Below are positions 32,261-36,644 of a stretch of DNA of 64,000 bases, in pieces. The DNA comes from an uncultured Actinomycetes bacterium (GTDB taxonomy: Bacteria > Actinomycetota > Thermoleophilia > Gaiellales > JALYLC01). The position numbers and the translations under genes were made by a program. Below the pieces are notes generated by a model. The model ran no database searches. It had not been told where the DNA came from and was given only the letters and a program-made list of their open reading frames with translations. How positions within the stretch are numbered: the first letter of the stretch is position 1; each line of letters starts with the position of its first letter. The stretch spans positions 2,487-66,486 of the forward strand of contig CAVOLG010000001.1 in assembly GCA_963696735.1 (NCBI GenBank), in the 5' to 3' direction.

Positions 32261-34676
32261 ATGAGCACCCTCGGGCTGAGCTCGGACGAGGCCGCGCGCC
32301 GGCTGGCCGAGCGCGGGCCTTCCGAGCCTCCGGCGTCGAGCCGGAGCGTGGCCTCGATCCTGCGCGAGAACGTCCTCACGCTGTTCAACCTCATCCTGGG
32401 CAGCTTCGCCCTGGCCCTGCTGGCCACCGGCCAGTTCGCGGACCTCGTGTTCGTCGTCGTCATCGTGGCCAACGCCTCCATCGGCATCGTCCAGGAGCTG
32501 TGGGCGAAGCGGCAGCTGGACCATCTCGCCCTGCTCGTCGCCCCTCGGGCTCAGGTCCTGCGCGACGGCCGGCCGATCGACGTCCCGGTGGAGGACGTGG
32601 TCGCCGGAGATGCGGTTCAGCATCCAGCCCGGGGACCAGGTCGTCGCCGACGGGACGGTGGTCGAGTCACGCGCCCTGCAGGTGGACGAGTCGCTGCTCA
32701 CGGGCGAGTCGGAGGCGGTGGCGCGGACGACCGGCGAGCCCCTGCAGTCGGGGTCCTTCTGCGTGGCGGGCTCGGGAACCTACCTGGCCGAGAAGGTGGG
32801 GGCCGACGCCTACGCGAACGAGCTCGTGGGCCTGGCCCAGGGCGACCGCCAGCCGCTCTCGCCCCTGCAGAAGGAGATCAACCGCCTCCTGCGGATCCTG
32901 CTGATCATCATGGTTCCGGTGGGCGGGAGCTTCATCGGCGCCCTGCTCGCCCACCAGGTCTCCACCCGGCAGGCGGTGTCCGAGGCCACGGCCGGGATCG
33001 TCTCCCTGATCCCCGAGGGCCTGGTGCTCCTGACCAGCGTGACCTTCGCCGTGGCGGCGGGACGTATGGCCCGGCTGGGCGGCCTGGTTCAGCGCCTGAA
33101 CGCGATCGAGTCCCTCGCCGGCGTCGACGTGGTGTGCGTGGACAAGACCGGGACCCTCACCGACGGGACGCTCCGCCTTGACGACGTCGAGGCGGTGAAC
33201 GGCGCCGGCCCCGAGGAGGCACGCCGCCAGCTGGCCCGGTACGCCGCGAGCATCGGCGCCCGCAACCCCACCGCCGACGCGCTCCACAGCGGCCTGGACG
33301 GCACGCCCAGCCCGGTGGCGGCGGAGGTGCCGTTCTCCTCTCGCTGGAAGTGGAGCGGCCTGACCTTCGCCCACGGGGGCGAGACGCTCGTCCTCGGCGC
33401 GCCCGACGTGCTCCTCGATGGGACCGGGTCCCCGGCCGTGGCCGCCCGCGCGTCCGAGCTCGCCCGCGAGCGCAAGCGCGTCCTCCTGTTCGCCCGGGCC
33501 GCCGCTCCGGTGGCCGAGCCGGACGGCGACTCCCTCCCCGGCCGGCCGCCCCTGGAACCGCTGGCCCTGGCCGTGCTCTCGGAGCGCATGCGCCCGGAGG
33601 CCGCGGACGCCGTGGCCTTCCTGCACGAGCGCGGCGTCGAGGTCAAGGTCGTGTCCGGCGACGGGCCCGACACGGTGGAGGCGGTGGCGCGCGCCGCCGG
33701 CATCGACACCGGCGGCAGGGCCGTGGCCGAGGCGGACCTGCCGCACGACGGGCCCGAGCTGGCGCGCGCAGCGGCCGGCGTGTCCGCCTTCGCCCGGGTC
33801 ACACCGGACGGCAAGCGGCGGCTGGTGGACGCCCTCCGCCGCTCCGGCAGGCGTGTGGCCATGATCGGCGACGGCGTCAACGACGTCCCCGCCCTCAAGC
33901 GCTCCGACGTCGCCGTGGCCCTCGCGTCCGGCAGCCAGATGGCCCGGGGCGTGGCCGATCTCGTACTCAGCGGGCCGGCGGCCTTCGGGGTGATCCCGGC
34001 GGCCATCGGCGAGGGGCGGCGCATCCTGCAGAACCTGCAGCGTGTGGCCAAGCTCTTCGTGGCCAAGTCGGTATTCGCGGCGACCCTCATCCTCACGGTG
34101 GGCGTGGGCGGCGGGACCTACCCGTTCCTGCCCCGGCAGCTGTCGCTGGCGGCCGTGTTCACGGTCGGCATCCCGGCCTTCGCCCTGGCCATGGCCCCGG
34201 TGGCCGGCCAGTCCCTGGCCACGGGCTTCCTGCGTGACATCTGGGAGTTCGCCGTCCCGGCCGGGGTGGTCACCGCCGCCGCCGTCCTCCTCGGCCACGG
34301 GCTCGTCCACACCTCGCTGGGGCGGTCGCTGTCCGAGTCGCAGACGACGTCCGTGACCATCCTGGTCTTCGTCAGCCTCTACCTCGTGCTCGTGCTGGAG
34401 TCGGGCGGCATGCGACGCTCACCGCGGCGGGCGCGCATGGTGCCGCTCCTCTGCGCGGGCGTGGCCCTCGCCTACCTGGCGATCCTCTCGTGGCCGGCGG
34501 CCCGCCACCTCTTCGCGCTGGCCGCGCCCACGGCGCTGCCCATGATCGTGGCGGTGATCTGCACGCTCTTCGCCATCGGCGCCCTCGGCGCCGTGGGCCT
34601 CTCGCTGACCCGGCCGGGAGGGGAGCGCATCGAGCTCGTCAATCCCTTCCGGACTCCCGGCCGCGACGCGCGGTGA
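32261..34676 (+). pseudogene. cation-transporting P-type ATPase (P2-like), one frame break near 32611
   Basis: ORF 32261..33181 gives the N part (LSSDEAARRLAERGPSE...). ORF 32610..34676 gives the rest, with TGESEAV, PEGLVLL, CVDKTGTLT and MIGDGVNDVPAL. Confidence 0.88.
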
Positions 34677-34706: not shown

Positions 34707-34780
34707 TCGGGGTGCCCGGATTTGAACCGGGGACCTCTCCGACCCGAACGGAGCGCGCTACCAGGCTGCGCCACACCCCG
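34707..34780 (-). tRNA. tRNA-Pro (anticodon CGG)
   Basis: The reverse complement folds as CGGGGTG-TG-GCGC-AGCCTGGTA-GCGC-G-CTCCG-TTCGGGT-CGGAG-AGGTC-CCCGG-TTCAAAT-CCGGG-CACCCCG-A (74 nt, CCA not encoded). Confidence 0.95.
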
Positions 34781-34835
34781 CGCGCCGCCCAGTATCGCAC
34801 ACGCCTGCGGCCTGCCCCCGCGTAGACTCGCCGGC

Positions 34836-35597
34836 ATGGCCGCGCCCCGGGACGAGATCGTGGCGTGGCTCGACGACGAGCTCGAGATCGAGCGTTTCCG
34901 CGACTACGGGCCGAACGGCCTCCAGGTCGTCGGGTCGCCGACGGTCACCCGGGTGGCGGTCGCCGTCTCGAGCACGCTCGAGGCCTTCGAGGCGGCTGCG
35001 GCGTGGGGCGCCGACCTGCTCGTCGTCCATCACGGGCTCTTCCTCGACGGCCGTTCCATGCGCGTGGACGCGGTCCTGCGGCGCCGGCTGGAGGTGCTGT
35101 TCGCCGCCGACATGAGCCTCGCCGGGTACCACCTGCCGCTCGACGCACACCCGACGCTGGGCAACAACGCCCGGCTGGCGGCCGACCTCGGCTTGCTGGT
35201 CGAGGGCCGGTTCGCCGAGTCGCGCGGCGCCCCGCTGGCCGTGTACGGGTCGTTTCCCTCGCCCCTGCCGGTGGCCCGCCTGGTCGAGCAGGTCGAGGCC
35301 GTGACCGGGCGCGCCCCGATCGTCTTCTCGGGCGGCCCCGACCCCGTGCGCTCGCTGGGTGTGTGCTCCGGCGGGGCCGGCGGCTTCGTGGCCGAGGCTG
35401 CCGCGCTGCCCGTGGACGCCTACCTCACGGGCGAGCCCGAGGAGGACTCGAGGGCCATGGCCCTCGAGCTCGGCATCACGTACCTGGCCGGCGGCCACCA
35501 CGCCACCGAGACCCTCGGCGTCCGCGCGCTCGCGCGGGTGCTCGGGGAGCGCTACGACGTCGAGACGACGTTCGTCGACAGCGCCAACCCGGTCTGA
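34836..35597 (+). CDS. Nif3-like dinuclear metal centre protein (YbgI/GTP cyclohydrolase 1 type 2 family)
   Basis: ATG 34836 inside ORF 34722..35597. DYGPNGLQVVGSPTVTRVAVAVSSTLEAFEAAAAWGADLLVVHHGLF ... GYHLPLDAHP ... GGHHATE. Confidence 0.88.
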   Translation: MAAPRDEIVAWLDDELEIERFRDYGPNGLQVVGSPTVTRVAVAVSSTLEAFEAAAAWGADLLVVHHGLFLDGRSMRVDAVLRRRLEVLFAADMSLAGYHLPLDAHPTLGNNARLAADLGLLVEGRFAESRGAPLAVYGSFPSPLPVARLVEQVEAVTGRAPIVFSGGPDPVRSLGVCSGGAGGFVAEAAALPVDAYLTGEPEEDSRAMALELGITYLAGGHHATETLGVRALARVLGERYDVETTFVDSANPV

Positions 35598-35600
35598 GCC

Positions 35601-36221
35601 GTGGCGGCCGAGCTGTCCGGCCCCGCGCTCGCGCTGCGCCGCGAGATCATGGCCACCTTCGCGGCCACCGGCGCCCCACCCGAGGTGCGCGGGCATCCCG
35701 CCCTCCACGAGCTGGCCGCAGCGCACATCGTGGTCCTCGACGCCGACGGGCGGATCCAGATGGCCCACCCGTTCGCCGCGCCCGGCGGCGCAGCGGAGGT
35801 CAGGGCCGGGCGGCGCCGCTGGTGGGGCAGCTGCGCCTGGGACGGCCTGGGGTTGGTGGCGGCCCTGCAGCTCGACGATGCGACGGTGACCAGCAACGAG
35901 GTGACCCTGAGGCTGGACGACGGTGAGCTCCTCGACGATGCCTGGTTCCACATCGCCGTCCCGGCCGCCCGCTGGTGGGAAGACATCGCCTACACCTGAG
36001 CGACCATGCGGCTCTTCCGGTCGGAGGAGGACGTGGCGGCCTGGCAGGAGGCGTCGGGCGAGAGGTCCGGGGTCACGATCCCGGCCGCGCAGCTGCAGCG
36101 CCTGGGACGGGCGTGGTACGGCGACCGGCTGGACCCGGCCTGGCGGCCGCGCACGGTGGCCCAGTCGCAGGCGTTGCTGGAGGAGGCCGGCCTGAGCGGG
36201 CCGTTCTGGCGCCTCCGGTAG
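35601..36221 (+). CDS. MerB-like (alkylmercury lyase family) protein with a single in-frame TGA at 35997-35999; candidate selenocysteine codon, otherwise a nonsense-split gene
   Basis: ORF-track pieces 35601..35999 and 36006..36221 are in the same frame, separated only by TGA. The N part has WWGSCAWDGLG (MerB YAWCALDTL-like Cys/Asp). The C part has LFRSEEDVAAW (MerB FFASVPTAEDW-like). The TGA sits four residues before LF, where MerB has Cys159. Confidence 0.7.
36012..36029 (+). promoter_or_regulatory. SECIS-like hairpin candidate (CTCTTCC-GGTC-GGAGGAG)
   Basis: 7-bp stem (one G-U) with a GGUC tetraloop. It starts 12 nt after the TGA. The loop GU is at +24/+25 from the U of UGA, compared with +23/+24 in E. 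coli fdhF as I recall it. Confidence 0.4.
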
Positions 36222-36238
36222 AAGGGCCGGCGCGCCAG

Positions 36239-36267
36239 TGGACGACCGCCGAACGCACCGCTAGGAT
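36239..36267 (+). promoter_or_regulatory. candidate sigma-70-type promoter (TGGACG - 17 nt - TAGGAT)
   Basis: Hexamers at 36239-36244 and 36262-36267. Sequence-only guess. Confidence 0.3.
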
Positions 36268-36339
36268 GCGTGCGTGGACTCGCGAACGGACCGGTCCTGA
36301 CATTGCCTCGGGAGGCGGTCCACCCAGCGAGCCGAGCCG

Positions 36340-36377
36340 GAGCCCATCGACCTGCGCGATGGGCTCTCGTCGTTTTC
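36340..36377 (+). terminator. intrinsic terminator/attenuator hairpin
   Basis: Perfect 10-bp stem GAGCCCATCG / CGATGGGCTC with loop ACCTGCG, followed by TCGTCGTTTT. It lies 120 nt after the MerB-like stop and 24 nt before the RBS and ATG of the next small ORF. Confidence 0.6.
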
Positions 36378-36400
36378 GGGACGGAGAGGAGCGTGGTCAG

Positions 36401-36574
36401 ATGGCGAACCACCTGACGCCGGAGGAGATCTGTCGCGAGTTCGGGATGAAACGCGACGAGGTCATCCGGATCTGCGTCCAGGAGGGCGTACCCATCTACC
36501 ACGGGAAGATCGACAAGACCCTGTTCGGCATCGTCCGCGGCGATCAGCCGCGCGATCTGGCCGTCGTCAGCTAG
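36401..36574 (+). CDS. small hypothetical protein (57 aa)
   Basis: ATG 36401 with GGAGAGGAG upstream, inside ORF 35975..36574. MANHLTPEEICREFGMKRDEVIRICVQEGVPIYHGKIDKTLFGIVRGDQPRDLAVVS. Possibly HTH-like, family not recognised. Confidence 0.5.
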   Translation: MANHLTPEEICREFGMKRDEVIRICVQEGVPIYHGKIDKTLFGIVRGDQPRDLAVVS

Positions 36575-36644
36575 CCACGACCTGCCCCCAGCCCCGGCCC
36601 GGTGCCTGGCGCGATGATCGCCAGGACCGTGGTACCGTGGCCGC

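Follow-up and report, generated by a model that had tools for sequence, protein, structure and literature searches.

Is the in-frame UGA that interrupts a MerB-like gene an ordinary stop, or is it a codon for selenocysteine (Sec)? The question is raised by positions 35601-36221 (+) of a 64,000-nucleotide stretch of DNA from an uncultured Actinomycetes bacterium (GCA_963696735.1, contig CAVOLG010000001.1; hereafter the window), where a first-pass annotation made from the letters alone had proposed a candidate selenoprotein. On the comparative evidence, the locus is very probably a genuine selenoprotein gene, encoding a 206-residue enzyme of the MerB superfamily in which selenocysteine replaces Cys159 of MerB. 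The open reading frame (ORF) list and the translation agree with the proposed gene structure: 35601-36221 constitutes one frame, ORFs 35601..35999 and 36006..36221 share it, and TGA 35997-35999 is its sole interruption. The complete gene would use the GTG at 35601 as start, carry Sec at codon 133 and finish at the TAG at 36219-36221, which gives 206 residues, the size that had been estimated. Both motifs quoted beforehand are also present, WWGSCAWDGLG as residues 74-84 of the read-through protein and U-ATMR-LFRSEEDVAAW in its C-terminal half, where U-ATMRLFRSEEDVAAW begins at residue 133, directly after residue 132. The tblastn matches of relatives extend to residue ~205 in 160 loci. Between the UGA and the TAG there is no terminator-like site; the sole such site in the scanned region 35300-36700 is a hairpin followed by a T-run at 36339..36377 (+), ~118 nucleotides past the TAG, which is the probable 3' end of the transcript.

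The UGA at a catalytic position of MerB

Computed with the stop replaced by Cys, the match of the Pfam model MerB (PF03243) spans the interruption (residues 67-174, E = 6.4e-18, 65.4 bits against a cut-off of 27). Nothing useful was obtained with the window protein alone from NCBIfam or from single-sequence PDB searches, and the MerB structures were reached only by means of a profile. Built from 31 full-length relatives, this profile finds MerB2 (5c17) with E = 2e-20 and MerB (3f2g, 1s6l) with E about 1e-8; it places CAWD on C96..D99 of MerB and the TGA column on Cys159 (3f2g 'QSfCS..HFFASVPTAEDW'). The alignment to solved structures thus bears out the one in the first-pass annotation, which had put the UGA in the Cys159 column. 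Alignments A1 and A3 show no variation at residues C78, W80 and D81, which are aligned to 'CALDT' of MerB, so that the codons of Cys78-Ala-Trp-Asp81 (35832..35843, +) correspond to the equivalents of Cys96 and Asp99, the metal ligand and the proton donor. From conservation and alignment, the UGA itself (35997..35999, +) would be read as selenocysteine, residue 133, at the equivalent of Cys159.

An exhaustive HMMER search (1605 matches) provided 49 full-length homologues, whose residue in the UGA column, a check suggested at the outset, is Cys in 46/49 and Trp in 3/49. The structure was modelled on a natural Cys homologue (P0041) which is 45% identical to the window protein: its AlphaFold2 (AF2) model has a pLDDT of 90.4 and a pTM of 0.86, and its sole significant PDB matches with Foldseek are MerB and MerB2 (TMt 0.61-0.68, E about 1e-10). 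Besides this, the Cys-type homologues vary at the other catalytic positions. The position of MerB Asp99 is occupied by Cys in 18/49 of the full-length Cys-type homologues (alignment A4, P0121-P0267), resulting in a C-x-x-C motif plus a third Cys, and a few others in alignment A4 have no equivalent of Cys96 or Asp99, a variation in sequence which suggests that the Cys-type homologues comprise functionally diverse sub-clades.

Conservation of the UGA and of the hairpin that follows it

Among 5.8 billion proteins searched, 181 relatives were retrieved. The loci compared as DNA were the best 80 from contigs of GTDB (one genome per species) together with the window, plus those JGI metagenome loci that could be classified. 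More than 100 distinct protein clusters are 121-133 residues long, down to ~53% identity, and all of the aligned short clusters terminate at the same column, '...VPAxxWW[DE]DIxxT'. The codon at this column is TGA in 159/159 scorable related loci from about six phyla (81/81 for the window and the species-genome loci, 77/77 for the metagenome loci), and never TAA or TAG; loci with the TGA extend to 38% protein identity. Where these genes really end, the stops are far less uniform, with TGA 41, TAG 36 and TAA 4 (51%, 44% and 5%). Past the TGA, an open and conserved frame continues for 55-89 residues and ends in '..GLxGxFWxL'. Other UGA-containing orthologues, which the first-pass annotation had recommended looking for, are therefore the rule.

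The hosts are mostly Thermoleophilia (Solirubrobacterales, Gaiellales), and also Acidimicrobiia, Chloroflexia, Gemmatimonadales, Acidobacteriota and a few more. Over all of GTDB, more than 549 matches are available, and among the carriers of the gene are the near-complete MAG contigs CAWHEG010000031.1 (3.57 Mb), CAVRTK010000001.1 and CAVVDX010000002.1. A 48-kb JGI contig (P0006) is syntenic with the window, both having the order DnaX-YbaB-RecR ... P-type ATPase-NIF3-MerB-3D-domain protein-response regulator-PBP4-LigA-SurE, and contains the same gene at 73% identity, called as ORFs of 129 and 75 residues. One copy belongs to a cultured strain, Solirubrobacter soli DSM 22325 (GCA_000423665.1; AUIK01000001.1; locus L015, also L169 10001-10561): the RefSeq protein WP_028062006.1, 'organomercurial lyase', is the 121-residue N-terminal fragment of this copy, ending at the UGA, and the C-terminal 62 residues are called as a separate ORF. 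An ATG lies at 36006-36008, 6 nucleotides past the UGA; most relatives share it, and ~10 have ATT or ATC (Ile) at this codon. The ATG leads gene callers to report the C-terminal 61-75 residues as a small ORF of their own (P0006 contig, S. soli, an ENA contig).

The first-pass annotation had also pointed to a hairpin 12 nucleotides past the UGA as a possible selenocysteine insertion sequence (SECIS), and it is found both in the minimum free energy (MFE) fold of the window sequence and in the RNAalifold consensus of 81 sequences, which consists of exactly a 7-bp helix at +16..+33 with a 4-nucleotide loop. This SECIS-type hairpin (36012..36029, +) lies within the coding sequence, in the codons for L-F-R-S-E-E, and reads CUCUUCC-GGUC-GGAGGAG: a 7-bp stem with one G·U, formed by arms 36012-36018 (CUCUUCC) and 36023-36029 (GGAGGAG), and the loop GGUC at 36019-36022, starting at +23. 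Among 146 distinct sequences, pairing is kept at 96% of the pair positions, compared with 52-68% once the 3' arm is shifted along, and the loop is GGUC in 142/146. Compensatory changes on both sides were observed for pairs G18-C31 (CUGUUCC-GGUC-GGAACAG, in which a silent substitution at Leu makes up for a Glu-to-Gln replacement), G19-C30 (CUCGUCC-GGUC-GGGCGAG) and G22-C27 (CUCUUCG-GGUC-CGAGGAG), and at pair 19-30 C never occurs together with A (Fisher p = 0.0036). Codon usage is likewise constrained: the synonymous positions +18, +21, +24 and +27 within the hairpin are 97-99% invariant, compared with 44-79% outside it, and the hairpin uses the Arg codon CGG in 78/79 (27.7% elsewhere in the same genes), the Ser codon TCG in 76/80 (38% elsewhere) and the Leu codon CTC in 100% (52% elsewhere). 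Taken across the relatives, the hairpin is an RNA element under selection. A possible lower helix that pairs 36004-36008 with 36032-36036 (36004..36036, +) is present in the window MFE fold; being 75% paired across relatives and missing from the consensus fold, it was dropped from the core model.

The E. coli fdhF SECIS offers the closest comparison. In this element the G and the U of the loop are the contacts of SelB. As in fdhF, the hairpin here is placed directly past the UGA, inside the coding sequence, and its apical loop is GGUC. In the K-12 sequence the UGA is codon 140 and the GGUC starts at +22, so the loop given in the first-pass annotation proved right, and the one in the window lies 1 nucleotide further on, at +23. 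The hairpin here differs from the fdhF element in its upper stem, whose 7-bp helix is perfect, includes one G·U and lacks a bulged U; the sequence is otherwise unrelated.

Three Cys-type relatives were read at the DNA level as controls. In P0172, the peptide L-L-F-R-S-D-E-H is encoded by CTG TTC CGC TCG GAC GAG, which leaves a GCUC loop and a broken stem; P0041, with an unrelated peptide (GCCUUCUGCGACGAGCGC), has no hairpin; and P0127 (L-L-F-R-D-E-E-H; CTC TTC CGC GAC GAG GAG) retains a residual stem between the Leu-Phe and Glu-Glu codons, with the loop CGCGAC. The overlap of the hairpin with a conserved coding motif, raised as a caveat from the beginning, is thus a valid concern for a part of the stem, while the loop and the exact codons are, in the sequences compared, specific to the UGA forms. 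Sharing of the hairpin codons by Cys orthologues merely through the LFRSEE motif, listed in the first-pass annotation as a refuting outcome, was not observed: the near-identical peptide of P0172 is written in different codons. Furthermore, RSEE is nearly invariant in the UGA forms and variable in the Cys forms, which suggests that the peptide is shaped by the RNA and not the other way round.

Selenocysteine and the alternative readings

Several results count against a selenocysteine codon and have to be weighed here. ARAGORN detected no tRNA-Sec in the window and 160 related loci, and tblastn with E. coli SelA, SelB and SelD revealed no selA, selB or selD in the window plus ~0.9 Mb of related flanks, where the weak matches are PurM-like neighbours and, in L158, a single Tet(M)/EF-G-like GTPase. 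Such genes are not expected beside a selenoprotein gene, and their absence from the window and these flanks is therefore neutral towards the Sec machinery predicted for the host genomes; Sec decoding is documented in Actinobacteria (e.g., Rubrobacter), Chloroflexi and Acidobacteria (PMC1794560). The folding check proposed in the first-pass annotation had a mixed outcome: the hairpin appears in the MFE fold, but no SECIS family of Rfam was matched at gathering and E-value thresholds, and the sequence folded singly has an energy that is unremarkable at its G+C content (z = -0.16), so that the significance of the hairpin derives from the comparative data only. As the residual stem of P0127 indicates at the level of sequence, the complementarity of the stem (Leu-Phe versus Glu-Glu codons) is partly a free by-product of the peptide motif. 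Finally, Trp stands in place of Sec in three metagenome clusters (L081 153-755, L085 255-950 and protein P0147), all of which retain the LFRSEE/FFRSDE motif. The DNA of L081 and L085 has a genuine TGG at this codon together with an undamaged CUCUUCC-GGUC-GGAGGAG hairpin, P0147 being known as a protein alone. These TGG forms are either recent loss-of-function alleles or base-call errors, and they turn up, although rare, because only such variants get called as full-length proteins. A scan of the window and of the flanks of related loci for a further in-frame TGA with a GGUC hairpin gave nothing convincing.

The same data bear on the other ways in which the locus could be explained. The simplest of them, a nonsense mutation or a base-call error in a pseudogene, had been put forward as a real alternative in the first-pass annotation, together with the remark that the window is full of sequence errors. 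The remark agrees with what is seen upstream, where at least one gene is frameshifted: the P-type ATPase at 32261-34676 is split over overlapping frames (ORFs 32261..33181 and 32610..34676) and corresponds to an intact 804-residue gene in the syntenic JGI contig, which indicates a frameshift or an assembly error in the window. Nonetheless, the same TGA is present in all 158 other loci as well as in over 100 independent protein clusters, and this conservation across species excludes a sequencing error or nonsense mutation, leaving a local artefact with a negligible probability. It is also very unlikely that the UGA acts as an ordinary stop in a split gene, whose chains of 132 and 71 residues (the latter from ATG 36006) would be produced by termination-reinitiation and assemble into a two-chain MerB-like protein. 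The ATG 6 nucleotides past the stop, Met in most relatives, and the two ORFs or the truncated protein in gene calls and RefSeq speak for such an arrangement. On the other hand, the stop is TGA in 159/159 loci even though TAG and TAA end half of these genes, the supposed start is ATT or ATC in about 10 loci, and no Shine-Dalgarno sequence precedes ATG 36006; the break would moreover delete exactly the catalytic residue of the Cys159 position, which is Cys in the full-length homologues, and the hairpin and the constraint at synonymous sites would be left unexplained.

The same holds for a recoding without selenocysteine, in which a near-cognate tRNA (Trp or Cys) would read the UGA, perhaps stimulated by the hairpin, in hosts devoid of Sec machinery. 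Although this would accommodate both the Sec genes not found in the window or related flanks and the TGG variants with an intact hairpin, we consider it very unlikely: the loop is the SelB-binding GGUC of fdhF at nearly the same distance (+23 versus +22); the position is that of the catalytic Cys, where Trp would be inactive; TGC and TGT are one step away, and the Cys-type clades that have taken this route no longer have the hairpin; and the TGG forms on which the proposal draws are rare and preferentially found. Insertion of Sec at UGA-133, presumably dependent on SelB, thus stays the preferred reading. In such a mechanism, the ribosome would arrive at UGA-133, and SelB·GTP·Sec-tRNASec would bind the hairpin 12 nucleotides downstream through its 7-bp stem and GGUC apical loop; Sec would be inserted in place of termination, and 73 further residues translated. 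In the folded enzyme, Cys78, Asp81 and Sec133 would form a MerB-type site which may bind a metal(loid) atom and cleave the metal(loid)-carbon bond by protonolysis. A lyase activity is presumed for this MerB-like protein, and its substrate need not be organomercury, since there is no mer or SAO context: merR, merT, merP and merA are missing from the window, the syntenic contig, S. soli and 160 other loci.

A probable clade of MerB-type selenoproteins and its surroundings

The first-pass annotation did not know of MerB-like proteins as an established selenoprotein family, but one has already been described. SaoL (NF040728) is a MerB-like selenoprotein with Sec at the catalytic position (bioRxiv 10.1101/2022.07.06.499078; PMC13188914); it contains a Cys-Sec dipeptide with Sec on MerB Cys159, marks the nine-gene SAO locus and is restricted to anaerobes (Haft & Gwadz, bioRxiv 10.1101/2022.07.06.499078). 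The proteins studied here share with SaoL the membership in the MerB superfamily (PF03243), the location of Sec at the position of MerB Cys159, and a database record truncated at the UGA with the frame resuming afterwards. They differ from it in other respects. The window protein has no match to NF040728, and its relatives score 42-57 bits (maximum 56.8) against a cut-off of 140. Unlike the C-U of SaoL, the dipeptide is Thr-Sec in 157/159 loci, the residue before Sec in the other two being Ala or Ser, or Asn, and in none Cys. Some 73 residues follow Sec here and ~50 in SaoL. Clustering of the flanks of 81 loci disclosed no conserved neighbours and no SAO, mer or sel genes, and the 20-kb contexts of P0006, S. 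soli and the ENA contig were likewise devoid of them; unlike SaoL, these genes have neither the nine-gene SAO neighbourhood nor a conserved neighbourhood of any kind. While SaoL belongs to strict anaerobes, the hosts are soil Thermoleophilia, Acidimicrobiia, Chloroflexia, Gemmatimonadales and Acidobacteriota.

With respect to MerB itself (plasmid R831b; PDB 3F0P/3F2G/1S6L) and MerB2 (PDB 5C17), the fold is the same, as deduced from the model of the Cys homologue P0041; the positions of Cys96, Asp99 and Cys159 are kept, and a '..F-x-S-x-x-x-x-x-x-W' pattern past the second Cys is common to both. In contrast with MerB, Sec would stand for Cys159, identity is ~20%, and an extra conserved C-terminal segment (WYGDRLDPxWRPRT...GLxGPFWRL) is present; the relatives reach 34-51 bits against NCBIfam cut-offs of 193-200 (NF009710 / NF033555), and the window protein gives no match. 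In the literature searched, we found no paper linking these taxa or this MerB-like clade to selenocysteine, and MerB is unmentioned in the main text of the GOS 2008 and ISME J 2016 papers, which reviews credit for a 'MerB-like' selenoprotein. It is likely, with less assurance than for the gene itself, that these loci represent a second, apparently undescribed clade of MerB-type selenoenzymes: stand-alone (no mer/SAO), with a Thr-Sec motif and a SECIS-shaped 'LFRSEE', occurring in no fewer than several hundred species-level genomes of soil bacteria, most of them aerobic, and systematically annotated as truncated proteins of ~125-130 residues. The window gene would be the founding example of this clade.

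Regarding the rest of the window, its only RNA genes are a tRNA-Pro and a signal recognition particle (SRP) RNA. The tRNA-Pro(CGG), at 34707-34780 (-), overlaps the 5' part of the ORF immediately upstream of the MerB-like gene (34722-35597, +), a NIF3/DUF34 gene that probably starts near 34836 (MAAPRDEIV...), as does the 253-residue product of the syntenic contig. The bacterial small SRP RNA (27553-27651, +; Rfam RF00169, 58 bits) lies, by synteny with P0006, upstream of the dnaX-ybaB-recR region. Further away, an F420-related cluster at 14373-18748 was recognized by eye from the translations (CofE/FbiB-like ligase, LLM-class oxidoreductases and PPOX-class proteins), and a ribosomal-protein, secY and map cluster at ~47-64 kb includes several apparently fragmented ORFs.

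A MerB-like selenoprotein with Sec at Cys159 was known from SaoL, and what is new is apparently a large and distinct clade rather than a new principle. From the point of view of annotation, the gene appears in hundreds of genomes either under the label of a truncated 'organomercurial lyase' or split into two hypothetical ORFs, records which a family model treating the UGA as Sec would correct. The locus also illustrates cleanly how a SECIS can restrict synonymous sites as well as the encoded peptide motif in the gene where it resides. Together with SaoL, it would be the second case of Sec in place of the same MerB cysteine, and the existence of Cys and Sec clades allows a direct test of the contribution of Sec to the cleavage of carbon-metal bonds. 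According to a recent review, aerobic bacteria rarely retain selenoproteins (PMC13188914); this one appears widespread in soil Actinomycetota and their allies, implying Sec machinery in those lineages. If the assignment is true, Sec decoding would be widespread among them, and soil bacteria would possess a lyase that depends on Sec and acts on some metal(loid)-carbon compound, not necessarily organomercury.

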